This document shows, piece by piece, positions 19,277 through 63,820 of a DNA stretch of 64,000 nt. The stretch is from Cirrosporium novae-zelandiae. Taxonomy: Eukaryota. Within the stretch, counting starts at the first letter, position 1. Each line of letters begins with the position of its first letter. The DNA is taken from NCBI GenBank assembly GCA_026023565.1, contig JAPETS010000006.1, positions 372,001 through 436,000 of the forward strand, written 5' to 3'. Below the pieces are notes generated by a model. The model searched no databases. It saw only the letters and a program-made list of their open reading frames with translations, and was not told the origin of the DNA. The position numbers and the translations under genes are program-made.

Positions 19277-19726
19277 GCTCAAGTTCGAGCATGATTACCC
19301 CTGGATGAAATAAAATAGCCGTTCAAAACCTTTTTACTCTTGAAATCCTCGTCTTCTCGACAGAATGCTCAATTTGTTCTCAGGACCATCTGGAATTTAA
19401 GCAGGAGTTCCGGACACCTTTAAACTGATAGACATGGAGCACTAATTGCTAATTCCATTTGATATTCAAGCTCAAGGTTGACTACCGACTACGCAATATA
19501 GATGGACAGCTAAGGAAGCTACTAACTTCTTTGACCGAGGCTATAGTTCCGTGTCTATATTGGATATTGCAGTCTATAACTCCCGAATATTTTAACCGTT
19601 CTTTACCATGTTCTCTATGACGTATCAAAGATTCAGCAGGCTATGGATTGTTAAACCTTGTTATGCATGTTCTTATAAAACTCTTTCCCCCTTGGTTTAT
19701 TTATTTATTTATTTGTATGAAGAAAT

Positions 19727-21043
19727 ATGATATCTAACCATATCCCCGCTTCCCCTCAATTTACTATTGCCGTTATTGGTGGTGGAATTGCCGGCCTCTC
19801 ACTTACCATTGGTCTATTGCGCCAAGGGGTCTCGGTTCATGTCTACGAAGCAGCCGACAGTTTCTCCGAGATTGGTGCCGGGGTTTCCTTCGGCCCTAAT
19901 TCCACCCGAGCAATGTCTCTTATTGACCCTGCGATTAAAGTCGGGTATGACAAGTGTGCTACTATAAATGGCTTTGAAGATAAAGCCCCGACTTGGTTTG
20001 ATTTTCGGTTGGGGATGCCATGGAGAGGAGGGAAAGAAAAAGGTGGATTGAATCCCGGACATATGATCCAAGGAGTGGTGGCGGGTAATGTTGGTCAGAG
20101 TAGTGTTCATCGAGCACATTTCTTAGATGAGATGGTCAAATTGATCCCGAGTGACAGGGCAAGCTTTGGGAAAAGACTCCAGGAAATAGAAGAAATAAAA
20201 GGCGGTGTTAGGATGAAATTTCAAGATGGGACAACCGCGGAAGCTAGTGCTGTCATCGGATGTGACGGGATTAAGAGTCGGACAAGAGAGATTTTGCTGG
20301 GAGAAGAGACACCTGCGGTGCATGCGACTTTCAGTGGGAAGTATGCGTATCGCGGGTTGCTGCCTATGGGCAAGGCCGTTGAACTGCTAGGGGAGGAATT
20401 AGCAAAAAACAGTCAAATGTACCTGGGCTACCATGGTCATGTTCTGACGTTCCCCATTGAAAAGGGGGAAACCATGAACGTTGTAGCGTTCCGAACAAAA
20501 GAGGATGACTGGGAAGATGACCGCTGGGTTAAGCCAATGCAGAGAGAGGACATGTTCCATGATTTCAGGGGTTGGGGAGAGAGCGTTAGGAGCATTCTAA
20601 GTCTGATGGAAAAACCAGATGTATGGGCACTCTTTAATGACCCACCTACGGAAAAGTATTGCCAGAGACGAATATGCCTCCTGGGAGACGCAGCGCATGC
20701 CTCAACACCGCATCAGGGCGCTGGTGCTGGGATGGCACTGGAAGATGTTTATATCATGTCATCTCTTCTCGGTGCCATACAAGACCCATCTGATATCGAT
20801 GCCGCTTTCAAGGCTTACGACAAGATTAGACGGCCCAGAGCAGAGAAACTTGTATCCACCAGTCGTGCTTGCGGTGAGCTTTATGAGTTTGAGCACTATG
20901 GGATCGGTGACGACTTAGAAAAATTGGCCGAAAACCTCAGGACTCGATATGATTGGATTTGGAAAGAAGACCTCGAGAAGCAGCAGGAGACCGCGATAGT
21001 GATACTGAAGGTAGATGCTAAGGGGCCTATTCAGCCCAAATAG
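19727..21043 (+). CDS. FAD-dependent aromatic monooxygenase, salicylate-hydroxylase-like
   Basis: Intronless 438-aa ORF with IAVIGGGIAG, EIGAG, VHRAHFLD, GCDGIKS (DG motif) and LLGDAAHASTPHQGAGAGMALED (GD motif). Confidence 0.9.
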   Translation: MISNHIPASPQFTIAVIGGGIAGLSLTIGLLRQGVSVHVYEAADSFSEIGAGVSFGPNSTRAMSLIDPAIKVGYDKCATINGFEDKAPTWFDFRLGMPWRGGKEKGGLNPGHMIQGVVAGNVGQSSVHRAHFLDEMVKLIPSDRASFGKRLQEIEEIKGGVRMKFQDGTTAEASAVIGCDGIKSRTREILLGEETPAVHATFSGKYAYRGLLPMGKAVELLGEELAKNSQMYLGYHGHVLTFPIEKGETMNVVAFRTKEDDWEDDRWVKPMQREDMFHDFRGWGESVRSILSLMEKPDVWALFNDPPTEKYCQRRICLLGDAAHASTPHQGAGAGMALEDVYIMSSLLGAIQDPSDIDAAFKAYDKIRRPRAEKLVSTSRACGELYEFEHYGIGDDLEKLAENLRTRYDWIWKEDLEKQQETAIVILKVDAKGPIQPK

Positions 21044-21541: not shown

Positions 21542-23344
21542 ATGAGACAGAACTCAGTGCTATCAACATCATCCCTTGCCGACCACAAGATCCATAAGGC
21601 TTATCCATGTTCTTCCTGAGTCGCAGGGGCCGACCATTAAATGCACAGTCACAGTCTACTCTCTAGAGGATTGCCCTTGTTACAGAGCATTATCCTATAC
21701 TTGGGGTGATCCTACGAATACCCACACCATATCGTGCAATGGCGAACCTTTCCTTGTCACTGAAAATCTCTGGCAATTTCTTCAAAAAAGCAGAAGCTTG
21801 GGCTGGATCTTTGGAAGGGCCAGCAACAACTGCATACTGGATTGATGCAATCTGCATCAATCAAGGGGATACCGAGGAACGTAACGCTCAGGTGCGGTTG
21901 ATGAAAGATATCTATATAAGATCAGAGCTTGTGCTTATTTGGCTCGGCGAAGAGAGTTCTAATAGCACTGATGGTATTGAATTGATAAGTGCTCTCTGTC
22001 GTGCTCATCGAAACGGAAAAATATCACTCAACGGCCAACAGATTTTGAAAGAGGAGTTTGTGCCTGCAGGCTTACCAGACCCAAAGGTTCCCAAATGGAA
22101 AGCACTCGACGCTTTATATTGGCGACCTTGGTTTACAAGAATTTGGGTCATACAGGAAATTGCAGTTGCAAGATCCGCTATCTTTCTTTGCGGCGATTAT
22201 GCCATACCTTCCGGGGATTTGATTCTATCTGCACAAATTTTGGATAATCGAGGCGTAGGAATTTTGACAGGTACAGAGCCTCGGGAAGTCACAAATATGG
22301 CCTTGGCCATAAATGCGTTTCATTTTTACAAATGGGATTTATCTAGCTATTTGGTCTCAGCTCGCTCAAGCGAGTCCACCGACCCTCGAGATAAGATCTA
22401 TGGGATCCTTGGACTGGCAATAGATAAAGATAATACTGCCTTTGATCCAGACTATTCCAAACTGGTTGCAACGATCTACCGCGACGTCGCTGTGGCATGC
22501 ATTCAGAAAGCTAAGTCACTGGACATACTCAATAGCGTCCAAGATCCGCTAGTAACGCTGCTCCCTGGGCTTCCTTCCTGGACGCCAGATTAGTCTGCTT
22601 GCAAGCAACTCGGCCCCACCCGAGAGAGGAGCTGCCGGAAATTCAGAAGCAACCGTCAGCTTCTCCAAAGATCACAAAATCTTATATGCTCGTGGAGTCG
22701 CGATGGATGAAACCCGGGCCGTCGGGTGCGGCAACTGGCCAAAAAACTTTGACAATATTTACAGTCTCACGAGTTCATCGTTCCACGAGAGTAAATTAAC
22801 AACACTCAAGGAACGTCGATGGCGACAATGGGAAAATATGGCCTCGAAACTCGGGACCTACTACTACCCTACTGGCCAAGACGTCCAAGAAGTGTTCCAG
22901 CGAACCGTGATTTTCGATGCCCCCGTAAATACCAACGAGAATGACAACCCTCTTCCCCTCAAGGAGCTGTACCGCGCGTTCCATTGCCAATGGAGGCGAG
23001 ATCGACACTTTGACGGCGGCGACGATAAGTCGCTTTTAGATAAAAATCCAGTGGCAGGAGCTTACGCAAAAGCCGTTAATCTAGCGACCTCTTCCAGAGC
23101 GTTTTTTATAACCCGGAAGGGGTATATGGGATTAGGCTCGCTGTCGACTTGCTTAGGCGACTTTGTCACTGTGCTATATGGCGGCAAGACCCCATTCGTA
23201 CTCCGACGACGAGGAGGGAAACACTATTATACTTTTGCGGGAGAGCGCTATGTCCATGGCCTGATGAATGGAGAGGGCTTAAAAAAGATGGGGGAGGATC
23301 CTGAGGTCGATGATTCCAATGTTCAGGAATTCGCTATTCTTTGA
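21542..23344 (+). pseudogene. Disrupted HET-domain (HET-6-like) gene
   Basis: HET motifs are spread across three frames: YQHHPL..IRL and YRALSYTWGD (frame of 21576); WIDAICINQ, QVRLMKDIY, WFTRIWVIQEI, DPRDKIYGILG, LPSWTPD (frame of 21706); FFITRKGYMGLG, YVHGLMNGE (frame of 22703). Frameshift in the A6 run at 21784-21789, TAG at 22591-22593, a further shift at about 22594-22630, and an out-of-frame ATG at 21542. Confidence 0.85.
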
Positions 23345-26231: not shown

Positions 26232-27576
26232 ATGGCCTCGGCTGATTCAAATATTGATGCTTCTGTTTGGCTTGATCCGACCTCAATTGGTGAGGGCTTG
26301 AGTACCGAGTCTCACAACTCTCCTCCAACAAGTAATGATAGCAGTGATAATCCCAAGAGGCACGCTGCATGTGATGAATGTCGTAAGTGAAAATGCTATA
26401 ATCTTGAGTCGCATACAATTAAACATACTTGTATTAGGTACTCGTAAATTAAAGTGCAGTGGTGAATCCTCAGGATGTTCGAGGTGTATTCGACAAGGAA
26501 TAAAATGCGATTACTCTATACAAAAGCAATTAGGGAGGCCAAAGAAACGAAAGCTTCGACATTCTTCCGAAGACATCTCTACAGACCCTACAGCTGGTGA
26601 TTCGGGAGTGTCTGTAACTGGGCAGGCTGACTTTTTCGAATTGCTAAATGGGGATGCCTTAACTGGGAATGAACAATCCTACAACACAACACAAGATGCA
26701 TCGACCGAAATTGATTTCAACTGGGGGATGTTAGACCTTCCTTCCAATATATCATCCTCGAATAATACACAAACAGTGTGAGTAAAGGTGTTGCTGTACT
26801 ATTTACATACTCTTATAAAAAGCAGACAACCATTGATGCCGAATTTCTCTGATGATACTGAGCTTTCGGTTGCGAATAACCATCTTGATAACGGTTGCTC
26901 CTGTCTGACAGACCTCTACCTTTCCCTCTCTACCCTACAATCAATTAAGCACCCCACCTTCCCTAGTTCTCTCTATGGCTATCGGTCCGCTTCCAGTACC
27001 GCAGCAAACGTCCTCCGATGTCCACAATGCCCGCAGAATCCGATGACGCGACTGCAAAACGTCATGCTACTGGGTACCCTGCTCCCCTTAATAGTATATG
27101 GATATCAGCAGCTTCTAGCTAGCATCGACCGAGAAGCCAGCAGCGAAAACCCAAGATCATTCCGGATCGGAGATTCCACACCAGCGCATCAGCATCTACA
27201 CACTGGCACACCCGACTGCCCGCTAGGGCTAAACATCGATCTAGATCCAGACGACTGGCGTCTATTAGCTCGAAAAACAATCAAGAAGGACATTCTCGGA
27301 AACGGGAACGAAGACACTCAAAACGGCTTGTTAAACCTAATCAACGAAATGGAACAACGACAGCGCAGATGGCATTCGGAGAAACCAGCCTGCATGAAAA
27401 AATTCTGGGAAGCCAACCCCCAGTGCGACCCGGCGTTGAATCCGGCGTTGGACCCAGCCCTAAGCTCGGGACAGGCGAAGGAGGGGTCGTTGTGTCTCCA
27501 GATTGTGGCTAATGCGAAGGCAATGCTCCAGCAGCTGGACGTCGTTCATGGCCAGGTTGGCTTGCGGGCAAGTTAG
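26232..27576 (+). CDS. Zn(II)2Cys6 transcription factor (short, AflR-like architecture)
   Basis: Introns 26383-26437 and 26778-26825 give ACDECRTRKLKCSGESSGCSRCIRQGIKCDYS...GRPKKR, followed by C-terminal CSCL and CPQC motifs. Confidence 0.88.
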
Positions 27577-28306
27577 TTGATGGCCTGGCCTGGTCTAGTC
27601 TGGTAGAGGTGCCGTGCCATAGACCAATTTTTACAGAATAATAAGAAATCGCGATATGCACTGCATGTATGCTAGCATCCAACAGATGGTGTCTTGATTA
27701 TTTGTTTGCAACTAAAGCGACCCTTCAAGGTGGTCCAAGCAAAATAAATAGACAACTATTATTAGCCTCTATCCGTCGTTGATTGCAGGTACCTTAGATA
27801 TACTCCCCCATAAAACAAGCAAAATCTATAGGAGGAAAGCGTAGAACAGAACTGTAACTCGTAAGATACTTCGACACCTAATAATAGATAATCGTAATAT
27901 ACATACATACATCTATACATACGTACCCCCCAAATTGTAGGACAGACGACTTTAAGAAGTACTCTTTCGTAATATATAACTGAAGATATTATAATGTACA
28001 AGCACATGATATAATCTACATAAGTCTCTCTCAGGACCCTAACTAGAGACTATAAAGAAAAAAAGAAAAAAAAAAAAACCATCGAGGTCCATATTTCCGC
28101 AGAACCATTCCCCCACCCGAGGCGACCCTATTAACCCCATTTCTATAACGTAGCTCATATATAAAAACGCCCCGAATTTAATAATCAGTGAGACATGAGT
28201 TTTTCTTTCTTCTTTGGTTTCGTTTCTGTTTGTTCCCATCATTCGTTCTTCCTTCTATAGAGTATTTATTCTCTTTTTTTGAACCATCACCGACACCACC
28301 CACCTC

Positions 28307-29326
28307 TCAAAGATCCAAATTCAATGCCTTTGCCATTTCGCTACAGGCATTTCGGTATTGAATATCTACTGCCTTGTGGACCTGGAAGGGATTGGGGGAC
28401 CTATCCCATGCATGACGGACCTTCTCGACGACCTCGCACGTAACGGTCTTCCCGAGTCGTTCTAGCCGCTTCGCGAATACTTTCCCCTCCGACATTAGCA
28501 TGTCGTATTCGCACAGGATCATGGAGACATTGTTAGGTAACATGCGGAGCTCCTCGTCCGTAGCGGTTGCGGGGGAGAGATGCACCGAGAATTTATCATC
28601 TGGGGTCGACATGTAGGAATTGTCGAAGAGGTTTGCGAGGGAGGGGGAGAGGGTCAGCTCTGGGCGGCAGCAGGTGGCGCGGCGCTCGTCGCGTGTCATG
28701 GTGAAGTCGAGGGCTGGGTAGAATGCTACGATGGATTTGATCTTGGGCATTTTCATGTGGTTGAGGGCTTCAAAGGCGTCGTGCGATTTCGTCGTGTAGC
28801 TGCTGGACTGCACGTATGCATGCAGGCGGAGGGGGACGGTGAAGGTCAGATTCGCCCCAGCAGAGAAGCCTGTCAAGGCGACGGCGGACATGTCTAGGTT
28901 GTATTCTTCCGCGTGCGCGGATAGCCAGAGCAGGGCTTCGACGCCGTCATCGACGGCGGCTGGGAATGGATATTCAGGCGCCAGTCGGTAGGCTACGCTG
29001 ATGAACACGACGTCTTCTACCTCCTCCAGCACGGCTCTAGCCCATCGACCGTCGTCTGTGGGCGATCCCAGCGTGAAGCCTCCGCCGTGGAAATTGACAA
29101 CCGGCCGCCATTTCTTTCCAGACTTTTCTAGGGCGGTGTAGTCTTTGGGTACGTAAAAGTACAGGTCGACGTTGGCAGCTGGGGCTGAGAGGGTGGCGGA
29201 GAAGTGCCGCACGAAGGACGGCTTGGTCGGACGTGGAATGGGCAATCGGTGGAAAAACATGCCAATGCGCATCAGGACTCTCCACCAGATAGCTTGCAGG
29301 CGTAGAACCCATCTTGGTGGTGACAT
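28307..29326 (-). CDS. erdH: HSL-family alpha/beta hydrolase; probable ergosteryl-aspartate hydrolase
   Basis: Intronless 339 aa. Oxyanion motif FHGGGF, YRLAPEYPFPAA, nucleophile GFSAG, Asp in CEYD, His in RHAW. Divergently adjacent to the AspRS-DUF2156 gene. The symbol rests on this context and the fold, not on an alignment. Confidence 0.8.
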   Translation of the reverse strand: MSPPRWVLRLQAIWWRVLMRIGMFFHRLPIPRPTKPSFVRHFSATLSAPAANVDLYFYVPKDYTALEKSGKKWRPVVNFHGGGFTLGSPTDDGRWARAVLEEVEDVVFISVAYRLAPEYPFPAAVDDGVEALLWLSAHAEEYNLDMSAVALTGFSAGANLTFTVPLRLHAYVQSSSYTTKSHDAFEALNHMKMPKIKSIVAFYPALDFTMTRDERRATCCRPELTLSPSLANLFDNSYMSTPDDKFSVHLSPATATDEELRMLPNNVSMILCEYDMLMSEGKVFAKRLERLGKTVTCEVVEKVRHAWDRSPNPFQVHKAVDIQYRNACSEMAKALNLDL

Positions 29327-30111
29327 TGTGTTTGTTTTTATCAGAGATGATGAATAGAAGGGTGTGCACGTGTGCCCACGAAGCCGCCAGTTATTCCGAG
29401 AATATGTGATGGAAGAAAAACAAGTGTAGAGAGGATCAATTATTGTACTAGAAATGATCTCGGTAATTAGCTCTTGAAGACTTTTCGAGAGATGGTTATA
29501 ATTTGATCAAGATTGTATGGGTAATGGTCGTACCCAAGTGTTAATTATAAGAGTCGAGGAGATAGATAACAAGGCGGGAGAGGGGGGAGGGGAACGATGT
29601 AAGGAAAAAAGGCCTGGAATAGGCCTTGGTCGATCAATTTATGTATCAATCAACGATAAAGTAACATGGCAGATGGGAGAAATAAATATCCTCTGCATTG
29701 GTTTATTAGTAAAAGTGTATTCTCTTTTTTTACGAGAAGAACCAGTTCCATGCAGAGAGAAGAGAAGAGAGGGAAAATGATGTAGCTCAAATGGAAGCCG
29801 GGGTTGGTTGCTTTGGATTCTCGCAACAGAAGCCATTTTTGTATAAGGCCACCGGTCATACAATGACGTTGCCATAAGGTGGCTTAGAGGCTCGAAAGAC
29901 TCAATAGGCTTGATTAGATAATTATATAAAGACGTTACGAATCCCACTACTTGGGGAAGAATACTTCTAATAATAATTTATTAAAAGATGGGAGGAAATG
30001 CTTTCTACTTTTATAATCTTTTTGAACAATCATCAAAAGTCATGTTCTGAGGCTAATAAATCCCACGACGGAATGGTTGGGCGCCGAATGGTTGGGTCCT
30101 TTCTTTCCTTT

Positions 30112-30150
30112 TTTCCTTTCCTTTCCTTTCCTTTCCTTTCCTTTCCTTTC
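30112..30150. repeat. (TTTCC)n pentanucleotide microsatellite
   Basis: About 7-8 tandem TTTCC units in the erdH-erdS intergenic region. Confidence 0.9.
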
Positions 30151-30420
30151 GTCTTTCTCGTCCTCTTCCTCTGCTCTAAGAAAATAAGAAAATAAGAAAA
30201 TAGGTGAAGACGGGATTCGGAGGTGGATATATGATATATCCGAAGCATAAATTATGGAAATTGTGGTTCTTTTCGCTTGATTTAATAACTCCGAGACCAG
30301 GATGATATCATGACTGCCTGGGGCATCAGACAGTGTGATAGTCCAAAACAAGTGTAAGTCAAGGGACCAACCACGGACAACCAACGATCCGATCCCGAGC
30401 CTTTCTTGTAGTTAGACGCC

Positions 30421-30445
30421 GAGCCACCGAGCCACCAGAGCCACC
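30421..30445. promoter_or_regulatory. Triple GAGCCACC direct repeat (GGTGGCTC on minus), Crz1/CrzA-site-like
   Basis: Copies at 30421-30428, 30429-30436 and 30438-30445, near the midpoint of the divergent promoter. Confidence 0.3.
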
Positions 30446-31539
30446 GAACCTTGGCTGCCTTGGAAGAGAGAATCTTTTCAGTTCCATTTCTTTCAAATTC
30501 CAAGGATTTCAAATGTTTAACCCAACTTCCCTACGTCATGTGCACAATGCTTGATTTAACATCAGGTACAAAGTACCAAGGCACATGAGAGATTCCCGTG
30601 ACAACGACTGACAACTCAACGAATGCGGTCATGGTCTGTTCATTAATTACTGATTAAACTTTCAAAGCTGTTTTTGTCTTTAATCTTGCCCCAGTTACCA
30701 CATCCGTCCATCTTCTATGCTGTTCGTTGATCTTTATTGACTTTGGGTAACAGATAATAAACGTACCTAGGTAGAGTGTAATATGTTGCGTAGTTGGTAC
30801 GAGATGAGAAGTTGAGAAAAGTTTGAATAAGCATTGGGCCAGTATGAAGCATTAAGAATCGGCAAAAGGGATTGGTCAAGACATCCGACTAAGAAACCCA
30901 CCCCCCCAAAGGAAGCCAGGGACCCTATCAGATGCCAGAGCAAAGCTCTTTTTGAAATGATTAAACTGATTATCAATCGACGTCATTCCTGAGCAAGCAT
31001 CTTGCAGCCCCCCAGTATCCTTGGCCAGCAAGTCGGGAACTTTGGAACTGGATGAGAAGTGGGATACATCCACCATCACAGTGCTTACTACTCAATCGGG
31101 GAACACTGGACTGACTGAAAAAATGTCTTTCTAATTATTCCTCTCTGCTATCAACGCAGTACATATTTGAATCCGCAGTATCCGGATATCCTTTTTCTTT
31201 TCCATCCGTGAATCCTCTTCTATTATTCATTTTTACCCAATTTCCTCACTTCCCTCTAGTTCCTCGCCATTCTGTCCTGCCTTGCCACCACTATCATCTC
31301 CTTGCATACTTATTTCCCACAACATTCCTCGTTGTACTTTCTACATTACATACTTCACAATTACTCAGAGATCTATTACTTAACCTCTTGCTGAAGTACG
31401 CGGCACCCCTCCCTTACAATCTCTTCTCAACCTTATTATCCTCCTTGATTATCCTTGTTCGACTCTACGTCATACTAGGCACCTTTCCTGGTGTCCCGTC
31501 CCTGAAGACGCCTCTCCTGTTGCCCCATCCACTGTAACG

Positions 31540-34410
31540 ATGGCAGCCATTGGCAACTCATTGCGAGAGGCTCTCTCAAAGGCCAAAGGCCGTATCTCGT
31601 CGCCTAGAGGTTCCCCACGAAGTTCGCCACGAACATCTACCGATACCGTTGGCAGTCGAGAGCAATTTTCTTCCTCTCGCTTCAATTCGCTCGATAGCGA
31701 TAGATCTGAATTATATTCCTCGAGCGATGATCTCGGTAATGACGAAGGCTCTCCCATGAGCAAAAGTCAGAAGAGGAAACATAATCACAGAAAAAGCCGC
31801 GAAATGAGGCGACTGGCTGCTGAGGAACGTGAGCGTGACCTTTCCAAGGAACGGCGGCGGAAGGATGAAGAAGCTAGGAAACTAGAACCCCCAGAGATGC
31901 AGGCGCGGTATGGGTTTTTACCATTGGTTTCAGAAGAGCAGGAATACCATCGCGACAAGGTCGATCAGATCACCATCGATCAAGTAGGGCAGGAGGTGAC
32001 CCTTCGAGCTAGAATTCATAGCATACGCCGGATGAGCGCAAAGCTGGTATTCTTTGTTTTACGACAACAAATCCTCTCTATTCAAGGTGTTCTTGAAGAA
32101 CATCAAAGCCAAGTATCAGAGCACATGGTTCAATGGGCAGAAAAGCTACCTACAGGAACGGTGGTGATAATCAAAGGGCTGATACAGAAGCCTCATGAAC
32201 CTGTCAAAGCATGCACAGTCCACGATGCTGAGGTGGTAATTAGAGAATTGCATGTTGTAGCAGCGAGGACAGACGCAGTACCTTTTGATGTTCAGGAGGC
32301 TGAAATGCGCATGCTCAAAGGCGAAGATGAAAGTGGTCATACAGTACACATCAATCTCCGGACCCGTCTTGCTAATCGTGTTCTTGATCTACGTACATCA
32401 TCATCACAGGCAATCTTCCGTATCAACGCTGCAGTGGGTAGCCTGTTTCGCCAGTACCTTGATTCTCAAGGCTTCATGGAGATCCACTCGCCTAAGCTGC
32501 AAGGAGGAGCGACCGAAGGTGGTGCCAGTGTTTTTGAGGTCAAGTACTTTGGAAGACCAGCGTTCCTCGCCCAGAGCCCTCAGCTTGCTAAGCAAATGTG
32601 TATCTCTGCCGACTTCGAGAGGGTATATGAGATTGGCCCCGTCTTTCGAGCAGAGAATAGCAACACCCATCGTCATCTTACCGAATACACCGGACTTGAT
32701 CTGGAAATGGCTATTGAAGAAGATTACCATGAAGCTCTTCGAATGATCGATGCCACATTGAAATATGTTTACAAGGGAGTCTACGATCGATTTCAACGAG
32801 AATTGGAAACAGTTGGTGCATTCTATCCCGACTATAAGCCTCTGACCTGGCTTGATGAGACTTTGGTCCTATCGTTTCATGAAGGCATCCAATTATTACG
32901 GGACTCTGGCTGGAAGGATGATAACGGAAATGAACCTTCTTATCTTGAAGATCTGAGCACACGCAGTGAGATTCGCTTAGGACAGTTGGTGAAAGAGAAG
33001 TACAATACCGATTACTACATCCTCGACAAATTCCCGACCTCAGCTAGACCTTTTTACACCATGCCTGATCCTCACGATCCCAACATTACCAACTCTTTTG
33101 ACATATTCTTACGTGGTCAAGAAATATTATCAGGAGGACAACGTATTCACGATGCCGATGTTCTCGAAGCAAATATCATCAAGGCTGGAATGAATCCCAA
33201 GAATTTGGAAGAATATCTGGAGGCTTTTAGATGGGGTATGCCTCGCCATGCGGGCGGCGGGATAGGCCTTGAACGAGTGGTCATGTTGTTGCTCTGTCTA
33301 GGAGACGTTCGCCTGGGGTCGCTTTTCCCCAGAGATCCCAAGTCCTTTCCACCCGGGCCTCCACCACCAAAACTGCGACACCTCGAGGCCTCGACGCTGA
33401 ATCCACCTTGGGAGAATAAGAACATTCCAGAATCCGAGCGAGAGCTTCAGCCCCTAGAGAAGCTCATTGCCAACTATGGATCCTCAACAAATACTTCCTG
33501 GTATGATGAACGTTGTCAAATCTGGAGAGATCCCAGTACTGGTGCAGCCATAGCCTATGTGCCGATGCATCGCTATGCTTTGATGCCAGGTGACCCACTC
33601 TGTGATGAGTCCCAATATGCAAAGGTTATTCAGACATTCCTTAAATGGCTTAAAAAGGAACTGCGCCTAAAACCAGTCTGGCTTTTGGTTAGCAAGGAGG
33701 TCGAAGAGGTGCTTGGTGCGAAGATGGGTTGGAAGTCATTCAGTTGTGTTGCAGAGCAGACTGTCGATCCTTCGAAAAACGCGGCAGAGGAGGACAGTGA
33801 TCTTGGCAGGAAGATTCGCCACGCACAACGAGGAGGAGTGAAAATTGTTGAGATACCTTTTGGTGAACCTGTTCCCGAGGATATCCGCCAGAAGTGTGAC
33901 GAACGCATTCAAGATTGGCTTAACAATCGCCACGGCACACAAGTGCGCCTCTCTTCAATCATTCCATGGCGGGATATGGAACACAGGAGATACTGGTATG
34001 CGCTGGATAAAGACGGCAAGATTTGCTCGCTGGTCATCCTGGCTCAGCTGTCTGTCAAGCATGGATGGCAAGTCAAATATTCATTGGACTTCCCTGGAGC
34101 TCCGAATGGAACTATCGAGTACATTACTATTCATGCAATGAATGCAGTTGCCCATACAGGTGCTACAACCGTCACCTTCGGAGGAGGGGCATCATCGAAG
34201 CTTACATCAGGCCACAATATGACTGGTGTAAAAGTTCGGGTTCTTGAGAAGTCCTACAAGGCCATTGCGGCAAATCTGCATCTCATCCGAAAAACCGAAT
34301 TCCGACAAAAGTTGGGTGCAACAGAAGATCTGATATATATCTGCTATCCTCCTGGTGGACTTGGGCCTCATGGTATCAAGGCTATTCTCGAGTTCTTTGA
34401 AGATGAATAA
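31540..34410 (+). CDS. erdS: Aspartyl-tRNA synthetase fused to a C-terminal DUF2156 aminoacyl-tRNA transferase domain; probable ergosteryl-3-O-aspartate synthase
   Basis: Intronless 956 aa. OB-fold (VTLRARIHSIRRMSAKLVFFVLRQ), TRLANRVLDLR, motif 1 PKLQGGATEGGA, LAQSPQLAKQ, motif 2 FRAENSNTHRHLTEYTGLDLE, motif 3 GGGIGLERVV, and the usual AspRS end FPRDP at about 33325. This is followed by about 350 extra residues (GDPLC, LDFPGAPNGTIEY, VTFGGG, FRQKLG) resembling the MprF/DUF2156 transferase domain, with no transmembrane helices. Confidence 0.9.
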   Translation: MAAIGNSLREALSKAKGRISSPRGSPRSSPRTSTDTVGSREQFSSSRFNSLDSDRSELYSSSDDLGNDEGSPMSKSQKRKHNHRKSREMRRLAAEERERDLSKERRRKDEEARKLEPPEMQARYGFLPLVSEEQEYHRDKVDQITIDQVGQEVTLRARIHSIRRMSAKLVFFVLRQQILSIQGVLEEHQSQVSEHMVQWAEKLPTGTVVIIKGLIQKPHEPVKACTVHDAEVVIRELHVVAARTDAVPFDVQEAEMRMLKGEDESGHTVHINLRTRLANRVLDLRTSSSQAIFRINAAVGSLFRQYLDSQGFMEIHSPKLQGGATEGGASVFEVKYFGRPAFLAQSPQLAKQMCISADFERVYEIGPVFRAENSNTHRHLTEYTGLDLEMAIEEDYHEALRMIDATLKYVYKGVYDRFQRELETVGAFYPDYKPLTWLDETLVLSFHEGIQLLRDSGWKDDNGNEPSYLEDLSTRSEIRLGQLVKEKYNTDYYILDKFPTSARPFYTMPDPHDPNITNSFDIFLRGQEILSGGQRIHDADVLEANIIKAGMNPKNLEEYLEAFRWGMPRHAGGGIGLERVVMLLLCLGDVRLGSLFPRDPKSFPPGPPPPKLRHLEASTLNPPWENKNIPESERELQPLEKLIANYGSSTNTSWYDERCQIWRDPSTGAAIAYVPMHRYALMPGDPLCDESQYAKVIQTFLKWLKKELRLKPVWLLVSKEVEEVLGAKMGWKSFSCVAEQTVDPSKNAAEEDSDLGRKIRHAQRGGVKIVEIPFGEPVPEDIRQKCDERIQDWLNNRHGTQVRLSSIIPWRDMEHRRYWYALDKDGKICSLVILAQLSVKHGWQVKYSLDFPGAPNGTIEYITIHAMNAVAHTGATTVTFGGGASSKLTSGHNMTGVKVRVLEKSYKAIAANLHLIRKTEFRQKLGATEDLIYICYPPGGLGPHGIKAILEFFEDE

Positions 34411-35281
34411 ATCCAACAGAGGTAAGGGTTAATTTTGGGGTGCTTCTGGTGTTGGACTTTATTTTTGGGAGGTGGGGTTACGATGTAACACGATCCTAGT
34501 TAATAAGGTGCATGAAGGGCAAAGAAAGATGCAGGATTTCCTAAACATTCATGGCTTTGCAATACCCTGGAGTTTTCTTTTGTTTTATGAATAATTATGG
34601 TATCAGTGTATACACAAGGACTCCTCATGTAGTAATAGAGGAAGCGTGCTGATAATAATAGACCTCGGCGTCCTAGTTACCTAGATAATAAAATTTTCTA
34701 ATTGGTCGCAAACGTGTCTATTCGTGAGAGCATTGAATATCCAATAAACATCTAATACAAAGATGGTAATTCTTCACTAGCTAACTATAGAGATACCGCA
34801 ACCACCGTTGCTGTATGCTTATTCTCAAATATAAATCCGCCTAAGCTGTTCTTGATCCCTATCTAGAGACCGAAATTAATATAGTTATTTGAACAATGAT
34901 AAGCTAGGAGCGTACTTACATAGATTTGCGATGCAGTTGTGTTTATCGCCGAGACCGGTAATCGTCCTCCGGCCTTTGACATTTCTCCGGAGACAGCAGT
35001 TTGAATTCAGATTCGAGACTGCCAAACAAGCTAAGTGACAGAATGCTTCAGTCTGTAAATAATGGATGTCATGCACTTTACTTGATCTCCACTCGAATAT
35101 GCTTATTGTAAGACGTTGATTTTGACAACAAGTCGGACTTCGGTCCAACGTCCATTTTGCGCCAAAATATCTTGCTCGGATATACTCAAATGGGCATTCT
35201 ACCCATTAGCATATAGTTTCGTCACCTTCTCCCTTAGCATGTGATAGCCATATAATCAAAGCAAAAGTGATTTCGGTTGCT

Positions 35282-35761
35282 CTATAGATGGACACCATCT
35301 TCTTCTTCATCATCTTCGATATCATCTTGCATCCGCTCTTGTAGCCTCCGCTCCAACTCTTCATCTGTCAAGTGACCTCCTCCAGAAGCTTGGACAGCAG
35401 CATGGCTTTCAATTTGTCCACTGCTTGCGGCTGAATCTTCGTCGCCATCAACTCCGTCTACAACAATTTTCTCTTCCTTGGATTGTCCTTCTCCCCATCG
35501 GAAGCCTCGCCTCTCAACTTCTTCTTTCAATAATCTTATACGGTCTTCCATACGAGATATAACGTCCATATTTTCCTCGATAGCCTCCTGGCAGTCTTGG
35601 TCGCCGTCATCAGCATGGGGTTTGAGTTGAACATTGGACGATTCGAGATGGGCAATCGAGTTACGGAGCTCGGCTGCTTTGAGGTGTAAATTTCCGAGTG
35701 GAAGAGTGGTGATTGCTTCGGCGAACCGGGCGGCAGTGATCGGTAGAGAATTTGATGACAT
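35282..35761 (-). CDS. Small acidic coiled-coil protein, TMA17/Adc17-like
   Basis: Intronless 159 aa: PITAARFAEAITTLPLGNLHLKAAELRNSIAHLESSNVQL...EAIEEN...RIRLLKEEVERRG, ending GVHL. Family assignment is from recall only. Confidence 0.65.
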   Translation of the reverse strand: MSSNSLPITAARFAEAITTLPLGNLHLKAAELRNSIAHLESSNVQLKPHADDGDQDCQEAIEENMDVISRMEDRIRLLKEEVERRGFRWGEGQSKEEKIVVDGVDGDEDSAASSGQIESHAAVQASGGGHLTDEELERRLQERMQDDIEDDEEEDGVHL

Positions 35762-42123: not shown

Positions 42124-44467
42124 TTATTTGCCATAGCTAGGTCCAGCCGTAGCCTGGAGGGCAGGTACTGCAAACAAGGTTAATAATGAACAAGACCTGA
42201 GGGATAGGGAATAATACGTACTACTAAATCCGTAGCCTTCTGTTATTCCTTCACTGTCACGCGGATCAATTTCCACCTTCAAACATATATCTAATCCTCC
42301 TATCATGGAGCTAAGTGTCAGTGCGTTTGAAGTCGGATGTGTGGTGCCTGCTCCCACTTCGCCTATGTGCAAAGGCTGATGACCATTTTCCGCTGGGGTA
42401 AAATCATCATTCTTAGGTTTACTGTTTGCTGCACCATCAAGAGCTTCATTTGCGAGACCAGTTGCGTAACCGTTGGCATTATTACTGCCATAGATGGTGG
42501 GGGCCTCAACTTCAGAGATAACAGCATAATTTCGACTGGGCAACGTACAGTGGTTTTTGGCTGCCGTCTTGGTGCTATTACCGGGGTCTTTGTCGAACAA
42601 GTTCATTAGCGTCTCGTCGGTTTCATCATCTAAATGGTGAATCTTGTTACGCCGCGCTAGAAGATTTGCGATAGCGCTTGGTGGAGGTTTGTTTGTAATG
42701 GCGCTGCTAATGATATTCACCATATATCGATGATCCCGCTCAGTAGGTATGCCGAGTGATAGTTTGCTGTAGAAACGACCCATGGCTCCAAGATGGACAT
42801 CACCACCAAGAATAGTCACTCGCACCCCATGATCCTGTGCCAACTTTTGTAAACGCTGCATCAAGACCCTTCGTTCCTCTTTGTGGTTTCTTGCAGTGTA
42901 ATGATCATCGAGGTCATCGAGAAGGTCAACTTGCCCATCGAAATGGTTGAAGAAACTTCCACCAAGGCCAAATCGCCGATTTAAGAATCGCATTGGCCCA
43001 ATAATAGGGGACGAGAAGATGTTTTCTAGCCAAACAAGTCGTGGGTACGCAATTGGTACGCCAAGAAGGAGAATAAGGTGTTTAATAGTACCTTTTGCTG
43101 CAGTAAGTTCTGTCTCAAGACGCTGGAAGATCAACTCATAGGTCTCGGGGTAATTGACTTGATGTCGAGTTCGTTCAGTTCGAGCATCAATACCAATAAA
43201 TGCTACACGAGCCCCCAGCTGCATGTAAAGACTACGGCTACGTTCTTCAACATAAGGCCCTGGACTTTGACCCAGGATAAAGCTGGGATCGTTTCCCTGT
43301 TCTGTATAAACATATGTATCTTGGAGTTGGTTGGGATCGATCCCCGGACCATTGATGCCTTGGCTGGTCATCGTTTGTGGTGCATCAGTAGTGAAGGTAG
43401 CTACAGGAGGGGCAATGTGATGTTGAAAAAGACAATAATACTTGTGCGACACGCCTCCGATCCCGCGGAAGACAGGACATCTCATGAAATGGTCGGTATA
43501 CGAACCAAAGCCATCAATAATGTCTGCTGAAGATGAGCATCTAATTCGATGAAAACCGTGTAAAGGGGGTCAACTTACCATGGTCGTCCCAAATATTTAT
43601 CTGAGGAATCTGGCTGTTTGCCGTTGCAAAAGGCTCCAGGCTGTACCATTGTGTATAATTTTTAAAGTAAAATTCATCGCATTCATCTCGCAGTGTGGCG
43701 GGGAAAGGAAAGTGTCTTCTCCTCGCAGGATTCCCAATGTCAGTCCAAGCCTTCAAAGGCCCTGTCACCCGAACCCCATCATTGTATATCTGATCGCCTC
43801 CACCGATCATGACATGAAAAGGCCTTTGTTCGTGGACCCGCATAACATCCTTCCAAAGAACGCCTCCTGGACCGGAAAACGCAGGCAAATCAGTCCCGAC
43901 CGAAAAGCCATTACAAGAGGAAAACATTATGCGCATGGATTGAGTCCGGGCGGGTACATAAAATCTTCGAGTCTGAGGATTTGGAGAGTTGGAGGGGTAC
44001 TGAAAGCTCACGCCATCGAGAGTGTACTCCCATTGGGCCTCGAAGTGTTGTATAGGAATATCAATTTCAAACCTGAAGAAGGCCTTAGCCGGATCCTCGT
44101 ACAATTTGCGACCGGTAATTAGGTGAGGTTCCGCATCGGGACTCGCACTCTGAATTTCTTCCTGGCTCTTCTGGAGAGGACCGAGGCAACGTAGGTTTAA
44201 AGTTGGCTGGCTCCAGGTTGGCTTAACAACAATCAAGATACTACCATGCCACACAATTCGATTGCTTGGTTCCAGCCTCATCCCTTTGTAATTCAACAAC
44301 GGTCCACACATAACCTCTATTCCCTTAATGGTATGTTTCCGAGCAGCTCCATGGCCGTATCCCGTGCTATTACGAAATGATGCTTCTATCTCTTCCGTAG
44401 ATGGCCCTGGTTCTTCATGTATGGAGGCACGTGGAGACTCGAAGGTAGTGTTAATTGAAGAAAGCAT
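42124..44467 (-). CDS. PhoD-like metallophosphatase domain protein
   Basis: Introns 43578-43524 and 42221-42168. Motifs FSSCNGFS, GGGDQIYNDG, WDDHDIIDGFGSY, IDARTER, LGGDVHLG, ISSAITN. Confidence 0.85.
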
Positions 44468-45770
44468 TTTGTAAATCTGACGTTGGAGGGTGCTCGATGA
44501 AACTCGTAGGAAAGCTATTCTAGAGAGCTAGAGTAGTTTTTAAGATAAATCAGTAGCGATGTTGCAAGCGCATCGATGAGAGGAGAATTTAGAAAGAGTG
44601 AAGTTTCGGAGCTATCGATTTTAGATCGATTGGGATGAAGGATTGTAATTGGAAGTACTTTGTATTGGATACAGAGTAAATATATGAAGGAGTGGCGATT
44701 TGGACAGATTTTGATTGATTGATGACAGAAAACACGTCGACTCGCTGGGGAAGGAATGATGATGCCAAGAGAATGAGTATAGAGAGAAGACAAGACTGAA
44801 GTTGAAAAACTGGAAAGAGGGAGGGAGTGAAGGGTTGCGCGCAATGAGAGAAAAGTAGAACGAGGATGTTTTGGGGTCCTCTAACTAAAGACGACTAAAC
44901 GGGGTTCAAAGCTCCAAGGTGCAGGGTTCAAAGCAAGCAAGCAAACAAAGGCAAGTGAAGGGAAGCAAAAGCAAGCTCTGTTTCCCAGCCAGTCAAGCAA
45001 TCACGACCCTGGTTACCTTGACGCCACACTTTGTATCATTTGTGTTGTCTGTATCGTCTGTATCGTCCGTATCATCCGTATTACCTGTAATCAGCCACAT
45101 ACTCTGACGAAGGCCAAGAAGTCTATTCCCAATAATTACCTGTGTGACCCTTGATAAATCATCTTTCCTTTCATTTGTCCAACAACAAATTATCTGTCGA
45201 TCCCGACCTCATTTATCCAACCACATTTCCATTTTTTTCTTTCTTTCCTTGTTTAACCCATGTACCTAGTTAGGTAGTTCCTGTAACGAGTCATCATCGG
45301 CTTCCTCTAATTAAGGCCTACCAGTGTCTCCACTTTTGATCTGATTAGACCAACCCACCCTCAACTTACCTACACAGTTTCTACCATTTATCAATTATCC
45401 TGAGATGAAGAATCCTTAGTCCCAGTGTCTACTGTGTATTTAATTCAAACCATAAATTATTCATTTTTGAAGCCCTGGAACTTGCTGTAGGCAATGAGCC
45501 TCTGGCCATTTCACGTTGGATTTGTGTGTTGCATGTGGTTATATGGACCCATCCTCTGTGACCAGCTTCTCTAGATTTCAAATCTATACGACAGAGTAGC
45601 TTCATGCCATTTCCTTTCGCATGCCGTGCTGTTTCATAAACGCCAGATCACCCCTTCGCCTAAAACATGCCCGACGGTGATGTTGATGAAGATGAAGAAG
45701 AAAATAATTCCCTTCCTTTTGTCATGCTAGAACGCTGAAAACACCATGATATTCCTGAACTTTCGACCCT

Positions 45771-60648: not shown

Positions 60649-63210
60649 TCACGTTAGTATCACAAACTTCTGCTCTGCAATTCTATCAAAAGCATCCACA
60701 TTCACCCTCCCAATCCCCAGCCTTTGCGCCGTCATCACTCCATCATCATCACCATCCTCCCCCTTCCGTTCCACCAGTAGGACGTTGTAGAGACACCAAT
60801 ACTTCTTCCTGTCATACTTGGAAGAATCGAAATAGCGATCCCGTACACGTTTCTCCCTTCCCTCTTCTACAATTTTTAAGGGAGGTTCATCCCAGTCGGT
60901 ACTCTCATCACTATCATCATTATTATCATCATTTGCCGGCTGGGCTGGCGTGGTGCGGCAGTCTTGAAGTGAGTGCAGAAATTCTCGAGTGCTTTCCTGC
61001 CATGAGGTGTCAGCATCTGTCGTATAGAGTGTCGACTGTGACAGTGCGATGAACTCGTAGTTGCCGGGCAGTAGCGGTAGGAGACGGTTTACGGTGTTGC
61101 CGTCGACGAAGACCGTACCCGCTGTTATCCCATCTTCATCGAGCATGGCGAGATCGCACCGCACGTGCTTGCCCAGAGTTTCGCAGTCTGGACGATGTCC
61201 TTTCCATGCACTGTGGAGCCGGGAATGCTCTCCGTTGAGTGTGAAATAAGCTGAGCGTGCGTGGAATCTCAGCTGGCTTGTTTTTTGTGCATGCTGTAAG
61301 AATTCTTTGGCTTGATGGGGTTCGTCAATAATATCTAGTATCGGTCGACCGTATCGGATGTCTGGGCTGTGGGCTGCATCGATGTAATAAATGGCAGTGG
61401 TATCTTCGTCGTAGCATCGCCTCCAGGACTTCCACCCTGACCATGGTGCATCGAGTTTCCCCGGAAATGGTTGAAATTGGGTATCTTCATCGTTATTGAG
61501 CTCGTCATCGAAGTCAGTGGGTTTTAAATTGATCATCGAAGCTGTTGTCTCGCAGATATTAAGCAACTCTGGATATTCCACGGTGCCTTCCCAGCCGGCC
61601 CAACACCAACTAGGAAACAGAGCTTTACCAGATTTTGGATCGCGTCGTCTATTCAACAAACCTCGGGGTTTCCACAGCAATGCAATATCCAGAAACGTGG
61701 CTGGTAAGCCAAAGACAAAACAAGGAACTCTAAAAAGGGGTAGCAGTATCTGCGCAATACCCGAAAAGGCGCTCAAACCATCTCGAGGATCTGTCATACT
61801 CCGGGTTGTATATCGAGTCACAATGTTGGCATAAATATCGAAATTGGTCTCTTCGTCCAAGATCATAAATGAAACAGACGATGTACCTACAGCGGTAGCA
61901 ATTTCATTAAGCTTTGTAGACTCTTCAATTTCTTCCTGGGGCTGGTTTTCGGCAAAGGAGTCCTCTCGAAACTCGCAGCCCCTGGGACAGATAAACTGGG
62001 CTTGATTTGCGGTGAAGAAGAGCATGCGATTCGAAAGGGTTCTCTCCTGGTAAGTCCAAGCCCGTGAATTCCATTTCGATGACTCAATTACCTCCTTCCT
62101 TGGTAGGACACTAGCGAGCTTCAAACCATTGATCTCTTCGATATATTGGCCAGTCTCTCTGGACTTAGGGCGAACACCCGGCATTCCAGCTTCAGTATTC
62201 TCGCCCCATGCAGCCGCGATTGTCAAGATAGCTGAAGTATATATACGATCCATCATTCCTATCTGTATAGCTTTATCAGTATCGTCGTCCTGTATTATAC
62301 ACAGAGCGTCAACCCAAAGGTACTGTTCTCCAAGCATGTGGGTAAGAATTATTGCATCCTTGATAGTCTGCGAAGGGCCCTTGTCATCGTTTGAAAGGCT
62401 TCCATCAGTTTGCATACTGTTGATAGTGTTCTTTTTCAAAATTATGGGCTGTGCTTTTCCCCAAACGTAGCTTAGGGCCACATATCTAGTATTTAATCTA
62501 ATCCTCACGATACATCGACGTACCACATCAATAACCCTTATCTCAGGAACATCAGTAGATAATGCTTCGGCTACTTTTACCGAAACATTGGGGTGGTATT
62601 TCTCGCACATGTGTACCCATCTCTTAAGCAGAGTTGGATCTACTTGGCTAGAGATGGTGCGACCCCAATGGTAGTCAACAGCTCGAGATTCCGGACTCGA
62701 AGAAGTCGGAATAAGTAGTTGTATCCTGGGAGGAATATCTTCAGCGCTAGACACGTCAAACCCGGTGGCAAGATCTGGGCGCCTAAACCTTGTTTGAACC
62801 TCGAGAATATAAGTGGGAGGTCCATTTCTCGGCCCTCCTTCAGTTGACAATTCTTTTTTATCATTCGAAAGTATGCACTCAATCCTTTCACCATTAATTG
62901 TACCTTCCTGCCAGATCGAGGGGGGCAGATGGGTGTTCTTGTAATGCAGAATAAAAGCCTGCTTCACAAGCCGACAGAATGCACATCCAACCTCTCCGTT
63001 TCGCCAGATTTGGTCCAAGTACCCAAGGAAAATATGGGCAAACCAGTCCCCATCTCGTTTACCCTTCTGATGTTCAGAAAAACTGATTTTTTGGGGCCAG
63101 TTTTGTTGAACCAATATCAATGTCCGAAATATAAGTTGAAAATCAATTTGTCGACATAAGCGACACAGTTGATAACTTTTGACTCCGTCTACCAGCTTGA
63201 ACTCGGACAT
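60649..63210 (-). CDS. HET-domain protein (TOL-like), intact
   Basis: Intronless 853 aa. N-terminal CxxC pairs, IRVIDV, YVALSYVWG, TIKDAI, YLWVDALCIIQDD, QIGMMDRIY, WNSRAWTYQE, FPSWCWAGW, QRLGIG. Confidence 0.92.
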   Translation of the reverse strand: MSEFKLVDGVKSYQLCRLCRQIDFQLIFRTLILVQQNWPQKISFSEHQKGKRDGDWFAHIFLGYLDQIWRNGEVGCAFCRLVKQAFILHYKNTHLPPSIWQEGTINGERIECILSNDKKELSTEGGPRNGPPTYILEVQTRFRRPDLATGFDVSSAEDIPPRIQLLIPTSSSPESRAVDYHWGRTISSQVDPTLLKRWVHMCEKYHPNVSVKVAEALSTDVPEIRVIDVVRRCIVRIRLNTRYVALSYVWGKAQPIILKKNTINSMQTDGSLSNDDKGPSQTIKDAIILTHMLGEQYLWVDALCIIQDDDTDKAIQIGMMDRIYTSAILTIAAAWGENTEAGMPGVRPKSRETGQYIEEINGLKLASVLPRKEVIESSKWNSRAWTYQERTLSNRMLFFTANQAQFICPRGCEFREDSFAENQPQEEIEESTKLNEIATAVGTSSVSFMILDEETNFDIYANIVTRYTTRSMTDPRDGLSAFSGIAQILLPLFRVPCFVFGLPATFLDIALLWKPRGLLNRRRDPKSGKALFPSWCWAGWEGTVEYPELLNICETTASMINLKPTDFDDELNNDEDTQFQPFPGKLDAPWSGWKSWRRCYDEDTTAIYYIDAAHSPDIRYGRPILDIIDEPHQAKEFLQHAQKTSQLRFHARSAYFTLNGEHSRLHSAWKGHRPDCETLGKHVRCDLAMLDEDGITAGTVFVDGNTVNRLLPLLPGNYEFIALSQSTLYTTDADTSWQESTREFLHSLQDCRTTPAQPANDDNNDDSDESTDWDEPPLKIVEEGREKRVRDRYFDSSKYDRKKYWCLYNVLLVERKGEDGDDDGVMTAQRLGIGRVNVDAFDRIAEQKFVILT

Positions 63211-63820
63211 GGTTTAGCCTCCTATGCACTCTTAATATCATTAGAACAATCTGAGTGACATAAAAAAAAGCAAGGCCGAAAGTGATCTTGTTGTCTAGTG
63301 GAACCAAGGTGCACATTCACGCCCTATTGATCGAATTATCGTCTCTGATCGGGTATAGACACACCCACCACACCCACGCACCACATCACAACGCCTAATC
63401 ATCCCTGGGTGTATCTTGGCCATCCATCAATTTTCCTGACCAACCAATAATTACAAAGATCGAACTGTTGAAGGAAGCCACTTTGAAAGAACGATTAAGA
63501 CTAGCTGATCGGGATTCCATGTAGCTTCTTACTGGCGCTAGCCTACACCTGAATCCGACACAACTCGCCTTGCTGAATTGGAAGTAAAAGTCTAAACGTA
63601 TTAAAGAGGCGAATTGGCGCATTCGGAAACCTCATATGCTAATATTATACTGAAAACTAAATATTATTCGACTCTTATAATGGCTGTTCTGTGTTTCATA
63701 TCATGTACCGGACGTTGGTCCCTTTCACCAAATGTCGGCGGCTACTTCCAGCCCCGACCTCTCTTTTGCCAAGGACGACCAAATTTTGGTGAAATGACCA
63801 AACTCCCGGTCGTTGTCCAA

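Follow-up and report, generated by a model that had tools for sequence, protein, structure and literature searches.

Bacterial MprF and other aminoacyl-phosphatidylglycerol synthases use a DUF2156 fold to divert aminoacyl-tRNA to lipid, often with a hydrolase encoded in the neighbourhood, and mycobacterial LysX is a synthetase-transferase fusion, in which a lysyl-tRNA synthetase (LysRS) is joined to MprF. The MprF and LysX enzymes modify glycerolipids, unlike the fungal ErdS, in which an aspartyl-tRNA synthetase (AspRS) is fused to a DUF2156 domain and the product is ergosteryl-3beta-O-L-aspartate (Erg-Asp). Together with ErdH, the hydrolase that removes the aspartate, ErdS makes up a system that is known and widespread, characterised in papers of 2020, 2022 and 2026 (PMC7334510, PMC8913301, PMC13219428) and represented by hundreds of fungal orthologues. 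The ErdS of Aspergillus fumigatus (AFUA_1g02570; PMC7334510, PMC13219428) consists of a basic N-terminal helix, an OB fold, a class II AspRS core and a double-GNAT DUF2156 domain, in this order, and its gene is the divergent neighbour of erdH. The same arrangement has been reported for Aspergillus oryzae, Neurospora crassa and most of the surveyed fungi, with the two genes interspaced in some species (PMC7334510). Here we have analysed a window of 64,000 nucleotides from Cirrosporium novae-zelandiae (GenBank assembly GCA_026023565.1, contig JAPETS010000006.1, positions 372,001 to 436,000), in which two head-to-head open reading frames (ORFs) of 956 and 339 amino acids (aa) have their start codons 2213 bp apart (Table 1). 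We consider it very probable that they are orthologues of ErdS and ErdH and form a functional write-and-erase pair for Erg-Asp. An initial annotation, made from the letters of this DNA, had already proposed such a module with a spacer of about 2.2 kb, and it is supported by the best match among known structures, by the affinities of the AspRS part, by the catalytic triad of the hydrolase and by the divergent position of the two genes. That annotation was also right that the system had been described in other fungi; its remark that the physiological role is poorly understood has in part been overtaken by the 2026 paper, which gives structures and phenotypes for ErdS (PMC13219428).

The larger ORF had been read as an AspRS with an OB fold, the class II motifs and QSPQ, running about 350 aa past the usual FPRDP end, and the case had been staked in part on finding DUF2156 in that extension. 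All of this is present. The motifs QSPQ, FRAENSNTHRH and GGGIGLER are intact, both in the translation and in the alignment to yeast AspRS, and FPRDP ends at residue 600, leaving 356 aa C-terminal of it. This extension contains the PF09924 (DUF2156) domain, and homology to ErdS continues past the Pfam match up to residue 955. The protein is a single polypeptide with the AspRS N-terminal to DUF2156, and its 956 aa compare with a length criterion of at least about 800 aa that we have taken from the survey in PMC7334510. When all PDB chain sequences were searched with it, the best matches were 9w9f, 9w9g and 9w9e, which are the cryo-EM structures of A. fumigatus ErdS (PMC13219428, data availability). 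The alignment to 9W9F scored 1183.5 bits and ran from residue 31 to 955 of the query and from 17 to 947 of the chain. For the AspRS part by itself, the 656.8 bits obtained with ErdS exceed the 465.3 bits obtained with yeast AspRS, which places it in the ErdS lineage of AspRS domains and not among the housekeeping enzymes.

Two other identities were considered and rejected. The synthetase part passed two archaeal/eukaryote-type AspRS equivalogs of NCBIfam (TIGR00458 with 450.7 bits, cutoff 368.4, and NF003483 with 399.6, cutoff 353) and was far under the cutoffs for asparaginyl-tRNA synthetase, LysRS and the mycobacterial LysX fusion, and the 75.1 bits obtained with the LysX model NF002821, against a cutoff of 742, led us to discard LysX/MprF. 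The second candidate was ErgS, the ergosteryl-3beta-O-glycine synthase, which is a paralogous sterol-specific DUF2156 transferase, essentially restricted to Ascomycota in the 2022 paper (PMC8913301). However, ErgS is a freestanding DUF2156 protein that uses Gly-tRNA from a separate glycyl-tRNA synthetase, whereas the DUF2156 domain of the window is fused to its synthetase.

The transferase domain was used to search a collection of 5.8 billion proteins, in which 805 proteins were found at E <= 1e-10 from 3306 candidates. Residue counts for ErdS given below refer, unless another sample is named, to the best 120 of these 805 ErdS-type proteins, i.e., the window protein and its 119 closest relatives. 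All 120 carry PF00152 together with PF09924. However, the name ergosteryl-3beta-O-L-aspartate synthase appears on four of them (JGI entries), the others being mostly called aspartate-tRNA ligase or hypothetical protein, and the PDB entries of ErdS itself are titled 'Aspartate--tRNA ligase, cytoplasmic'. This agrees with the expectation of the initial annotation that automatic procedures would call the gene a plain AspRS, and it is another case in which a lipid-modifying enzyme would be mislabelled as a housekeeping one. Identity to the transferase domain of the window was at most 62% among the listed relatives, indicating that the lineage has not been closely sampled.

The residues at which mutations had impaired the synthesis of Erg-Asp in the yeast assay of A. 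fumigatus ErdS (PMC13219428) were located through the alignment to 9W9F, in which the chain numbering is the residue numbering of that paper. Nearly all of the tested residues are conserved, and over the positively charged alpha(+) helix, the CCA pocket and the sterol pocket there are only two exceptions, dealt with below. In the CCA pocket W793, R797, G799, Q801, F921 and K924 (W785, R789, G791, Q793, F913 and K916 in A. fumigatus) are kept and invariant in 120 of 120 proteins, as is R922, the counterpart of the proposed oxyanion residue R914. Counting the latter, seven of eight pocket residues are identical, the remaining one being K790. The sterol pocket is preserved as S653, W654, D656, Q844 and K846 (S644, W645, D647, Q836 and K838 in A. 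fumigatus). The alpha(+) helix, located between the two GNAT halves, has three of its four charges, and the His found at position 761 is the majority state in the alignment (97/120). The N-terminal basic helix of A. fumigatus ErdS clamps the tRNA elbow through the motif xSKxxLKKxx (PMC13219428). The window protein has MSKSQKRKHN, an approximate match in which Lys and Arg replace Leu and Lys. In alignment A1, S74 does not vary and K75 hardly does. As a separate observation on the sterol pocket, ten ErdS-type proteins (P0412, P0414, P0415, P0418-P0420, P0423-P0425 and P0434) combine His at the Q836 column with Ala at that of S644, and the named ones come from smut fungi and their allies (Ustilago, Sporisorium, Pseudozyma, Kalmanozyma and Testicularia). 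In A. fumigatus ErdS, Q836R abolished activity and S644A strongly reduced it (PMC13219428).

The smaller ORF had been described as an intronless hydrolase with HGGG and GFSAG motifs, and these were found starting at residues 80 and 153, within an Abhydrolase_3 domain (PF07859) that covers residues 76-307 with 144.5 bits (cutoff 25). Both ORFs of the pair align without breaks and near full length with the A. fumigatus proteins, so both genes are intronless. With the hydrolase as query, 868 proteins came up at E <= 1e-10; the best match other than itself is 52% identical, and three JGI entries among them are named putative ergosteryl-aspartate hydrolase. Over the best 120 of these 868 proteins the HGGG motif and the G-F-S-x-G elbow are invariant, as are the three residues of the triad (Table 1). 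One of the matches is a hydrolase of A. fumigatus Af293 (P0133), also of 339 aa and 48% identical over 97% of the window ErdH, with Ser, Asp and His at exactly 153, 277 and 307, the published triad positions of A. fumigatus ErdH. We take it to be AFUA_1g02580 from the name of the organism and the numbering of S153, D277 and H307, and not from an accession. In that enzyme S153A abolishes the hydrolysis of Erg-Asp, and mutations of the triad do likewise (PMC7334510). The window ErdH shares with the ErdH of A. fumigatus and N. crassa (AFUA_1g02580 and NCU007081; PMC7334510) the fold, both motifs, the triad positions and the orientation with respect to erdS, although the equal length of the A. fumigatus protein goes with a rather low identity.

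By analogy with A. fumigatus, the AspRS half of ErdS would charge tRNA-Asp to give Asp-tRNA-Asp, and the N-terminal basic helix would hold the elbow of this tRNA and keep it on the enzyme. The CCA end would then swing into the GNAT II pocket of the C-terminal double-GNAT domain, where the aspartate would be transferred to the 3beta-OH of an ergosterol molecule held at the GNAT I/II interface. ErdH, as a putative Ser-Asp-His esterase, would hydrolyse the ester of Erg-Asp and in this way set its steady-state level. The pair is presumably expressed and active, with Erg-Asp as the product.

The divergent arrangement could be followed in other genomes. The ErdS alignment provided 80 metagenome loci, of which 25 match into DUF2156 and 55 match the AspRS core only. 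Among the 25 ErdS-type loci, nine reach 3 kb or more beyond the start of the match on its upstream side (the other 16 reach less far), and in five of these nine (L001, L004, L017, L018 and L037) an ErdH homologue is located upstream on the opposite strand, with a gap of 975-2155 bp between the ErdH and ErdS matches. The 2.2 kb spacer of the window falls at the upper end of the range in these five related loci and is longer than that of A. fumigatus. An ErdH-like gene was found in none of the 55 core-only (canonical AspRS) loci. In addition, ErdS and ErdH have consecutive locus tags in three named genomes, Rasamsonia emersonii (1072/1073), Penicillium sp. IBT 31633x (004001/004000) and Piccolia ochrophora (002433/002432), and seven pairs of ErdS and ErdH matches lie on contigs of equal length, as judged by eye. 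Homologues of ErdS and ErdH are also listed for Bacidia gigantensis, Lepraria neglecta, Lecanora helva, Letharia lupina and Xanthoria (P0036, P0120, P0126, P0132, P0154 and P0156), lichen-forming fungi that we take to be Lecanoromycetes. The 2020 survey gives ErdS as absent from Lecanoromycetes (PMC7334510).

Several observations weigh against a functional pair. One is the codon CGC, which places Arg803 at the position of His795, the proposed general base of A. fumigatus ErdS (PMC13219428), a change about which the initial annotation was silent. The column has His in 119 of the 120 proteins and Arg solely in that of the window, and in the ErdS-type metagenome loci it is His in 22 of 24, Tyr in two and Arg in none. 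The mutant H795A of A. fumigatus ErdS showed an Erg-Asp R < 0.5, compared to 1.42 for the wild type and about 0.15 for the null (PMC13219428). The exception in the CCA pocket is of the same sign: K790 corresponds to His798 in the window ErdS, in a column that has Lys in 105 and His in four of the 120 proteins, and K790E lowers the activity of the A. fumigatus enzyme (PMC13219428). Over the 215 near-invariant columns (at least 97% conserved in the other 119 proteins) the window ErdS departs at eight, the highest number in the set, for which the median is 1. Among the eight are D395 and R569 in the AspRS core, where yeast AspRS and the other ErdS have His and Pro; at another, G327, its state is the canonical one when set beside yeast AspRS. 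As regards the gene pair, four of the nine metagenome loci with enough upstream sequence (L007, L008, L010 and L013) have no ErdH anywhere in the locus, even at E <= 1. To our knowledge, no ErdS carrying Arg at this position has been assayed. The two loci with Tyr at the His795 column, L021 and L022, are 46% identical to the window protein.

These departures are what would be expected if the pair were orthologous to ErdS and ErdH but had a crippled transferase, in which Arg803 could not act as a general base and little or no Erg-Asp would be made, the protein being then a tRNA-Asp-binding AspRS paralogue or a gene in decay. The behaviour of H795A, the His shared by the 119 closest homologues, the additional loss of K790 and the record number of departures all speak for it. 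However, we regard it as improbable. The ORF is intact over its 956 aa, nearly all of the tested residues are kept, and ErdH is still present, its triad complete. Nor is the rate of evolution out of the ordinary: in a tree of the ErdS proteins (FastTree, LG+gamma, gap-trimmed columns, rooted on two Orbilia sequences) the window protein has a root-to-tip distance of 0.915, which ranks tenth among the 120 and is below the median (1.096), and no other terminal branch is as long as its own (0.403). We have therefore rejected relaxed selection or acceleration as the cause of the eight departures and attribute them to a long unsampled branch. The placement of the query itself had low support in the single-domain trees (0.19 and 0.588).

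A further argument against a dead domain comes from mushrooms. Across 150 representatives at 50% identity the His795 column varies: of 179 aligned stretches, 116 are non-gap, with His in 69, Ala in 18, Tyr in 12, Arg in six, Phe in six, Ser in three, and Asp and Gly in one each. Distant relatives have Tyr, Phe or Ala, and the named representatives bearing Arg come from Lentinula and Collybiopsis. A dedicated search that gathered 57 proteins found Arg in all 17 ErdS of Omphalotaceae type (P0258, P0260, P0279 and P0392-P0405), Lys in one further protein and His in 39. Sixteen of the 17 are named and represent four genera: Lentinula (aciculospora, edodes, raphanica, detonsa, aff. detonsa, boryana, novae-zelandiae and lateritia), Collybiopsis (luxurians and confluens), Rhodocollybia butyracea and Gymnopus androsaceus. 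All of the 15 other scored residues are kept in 14 of them, allowing for an Arg/Lys exchange in the helix, and the remaining three, which are incomplete, keep every scored residue that they cover. That Arg has become fixed in four genera whose ErdS otherwise conserve the pocket would be unexpected for a dead domain and is as expected of a tolerated state. These AspRS-DUF2156 fusions differ from the window ErdS in having long low-complexity inserts and in keeping Lys790, and the named ones belong to Basidiomycota, so that a single clade of Arg-bearing proteins including the window was rejected and Arg must have arisen independently in Omphalotaceae. Their precomputed Pfam lists do not register PF09924. 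On the opposite side of the balance, this comparison covers the ErdS proteins alone. Basidiomycota also have freestanding DUF2156 proteins of about 350 aa, found in Phellopilus, Rhodotorula, Pseudohyphozyma and Tulasnella (P0262, P0269, P0275 and P0278), three of the four with Ala at the His795 column.

We judge Arg803 to be a tolerated natural variant, and the enzyme is predicted from these comparisons to be functional, possibly with an altered rate. With Arg at this position catalytic competence is a prediction; membership in the family stands by descent and architecture, since His795 is a proposed catalytic residue and not a family-defining criterion of the authors. A bolder proposal, that the ErdS of the window and those of Omphalotaceae are fully active sterol aspartyl-transferases with Arg in place of His795, is in our opinion conceivable, with the balance somewhat against it. 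If it were true, His795 would not be an obligatory general base and the catalytic proposal in the literature would have to be revised, the role of the residue being rather electrostatic or hydrogen-bonding, e.g., positioning the A76 ester or the 3-OH of the sterol. More speculatively, the change of K790 to His798 might instead relocate the base in the lineage of the window; the pairing was not seen in the ErdS of Omphalotaceae. An isolated ascomycete lineage and a mushroom family with Arg and the rest of the pocket kept provide one of a few natural experiments on the proposed catalytic histidine, and their Arg alleles bear on the general base proposed for the tRNA-dependent aminoacylation of sterols. 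In its main text, PMC13219428 refers to H795 in two places only and makes no mention of natural variation there, nor of Lentinula or Basidiomycota (no occurrence of either name); its supplements, which include an alignment of 98 orthologues, may show it.

It is far less likely that Arg803 is not real and that a CAC codon has been misread through faulty base calling or assembly, or is represented here by a rare allele. A single transition separates CGC from CAC, and the sequence was found in one sequencing run only (X1), while two runs of the same study share next to no words with it and no RNA run containing it was listed. Since X1 may be the very source of the window, the agreement between both is not sample-independent, and this must also be counted against our interpretation. 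However, the Logan re-assembly of X1, with a mean word depth of about 357, has no differing letters and no gaps over positions 30177-34410, which excludes an assembly slip, though not a strain peculiarity. Besides, the seven other lineage-specific substitutions at conserved columns point to a long unsampled branch and not to a single slip.

Least likely of all, a plain cytosolic AspRS with a decorative C-terminal extension next to an unrelated lipase would fit the AspRS equivalogs of NCBIfam that the protein passes, the ligase names of most homologues and the complementation of a yeast AspRS deletion by full-length A. fumigatus ErdS, less well than by a transferase-less variant (PMC13219428), but the extension is a genuine DUF2156 domain whose homology to the transferase domain of ErdS runs from end to end, the hydrolase matches the ErdH triad and has its divergent counterpart in the five related loci and in none of the canonical AspRS ones, and a separate AspRS has been reported in every surveyed fungus bearing ErdS (PMC7334510, PMC13219428).

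The coordinates of all the features are given in Table 1.

Table 1. Features of the erdS/erdH locus of C. novae-zelandiae (positions within the 64,000-nucleotide window)
Feature	Position	Strand	Basis or remark
erdH orthologue, 339-aa alpha/beta hydrolase (predicted ergosteryl-aspartate hydrolase)	28307..29326	-	single exon, stop codon included; Abhydrolase_3 5e-42
Triad His305 codon (A. fumigatus H307)	28412..28414	-	H in 120/120
Triad Asp275 codon (A. fumigatus D277)	28502..28504	-	D in 120/120
Nucleophile Ser155 codon (GFSAG), equivalent to A. fumigatus ErdH S153	28862..28864	-	S in 120/120
Spacer between divergent start codons, 2213 bp	29327..31539	.	ORF list; presumed promoter region
erdS orthologue, 956-aa AspRS-DUF2156 fusion (predicted ergosteryl-3beta-O-L-aspartate synthase)	31540..34410	+	single exon, stop codon included
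Motif MSKSQKRKHN of the N-terminal basic helix, residues 73-82	31756..31785	+	aligned to the A. fumigatus N-terminal domain; counterpart of xSKxxLKKxx
Anticodon-binding OB fold, residues 153-238	31996..32253	+	PF01336 (tRNA_anti-codon) 32.6 bits, cutoff 27
Class II AspRS catalytic core (tRNA-synt_2), residues 274-599	32359..33336	+	PF00152 243.2 bits, cutoff 25, E 4.3e-72
DUF2156 / LPG_synthase_C aminoacyl-tRNA transferase domain, residues 644-903	33469..34248	+	PF09924 58.6 bits, cutoff 27.5
Positively charged alpha(+) helix R757 K758 R760 H761 ... R764 (A. fumigatus R749 K750 R752 R753)	33808..33831	+	alignment
Arg803 codon CGC (A. fumigatus ErdS His795, the proposed general base)	33946..33948	+	alignment; one transition from CAC

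The spacer would be a shared or bidirectional promoter region for erdH and erdS. It has no ORF with a visible family match; its longest stop-to-stop frame (140 aa, 31115-31537, +) is located directly upstream of the ErdS start, and the second longest (123 aa) is of low complexity. A TCCTT microsatellite of about 11 copies occupies positions 30097-30150 of the spacer, and the re-assembled contigs of run X1 break there. No tRNA genes, including a linked tRNA-Asp, were detected across the window, hence none in the spacer, and there were no Rfam families at 27500-35500. Nor did the 64-kb window contain a second copy of ErdS, DUF2156 or ErdH, a canonical AspRS or an ErgS-like gene.

The flanking genes are ordinary for a filamentous ascomycete and comprise BOP1/Erb1, Sas10, Leo1, Zn2Cys6 factors, two heterokaryon incompatibility (HET) domain proteins, a patatin-like lipase, a short-chain dehydrogenase, a PhoD-like phosphatase and a sugar transporter of the major facilitator superfamily. 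No functional link of these genes to sterol aminoacylation was evident within the window. Tail to tail with erdH there are two adjacent ORFs (26335-27576, +), the first of which carries a Zn(2)-Cys(6) cluster (24.6 bits), and that probably belong to a single transcription factor gene with an intron between them. At a distance of about 7 kb from erdH, the ORF 19721-21040 (+) matches FAD_binding_3 with 63 bits and, weakly, squalene epoxidase (SE, 27.1 bits, cutoff 20.1), and is probably a generic FAD monooxygenase. The PhoD_2 phosphatase match (42127-44527, -) is split over the overlapping frames 42127-43569 and 43544-44527, probably by an intron, a frameshift being less likely. The HET domain ORFs are located at 21667-22590 (+) and 60652-63213 (-), in keeping with a filamentous ascomycete.

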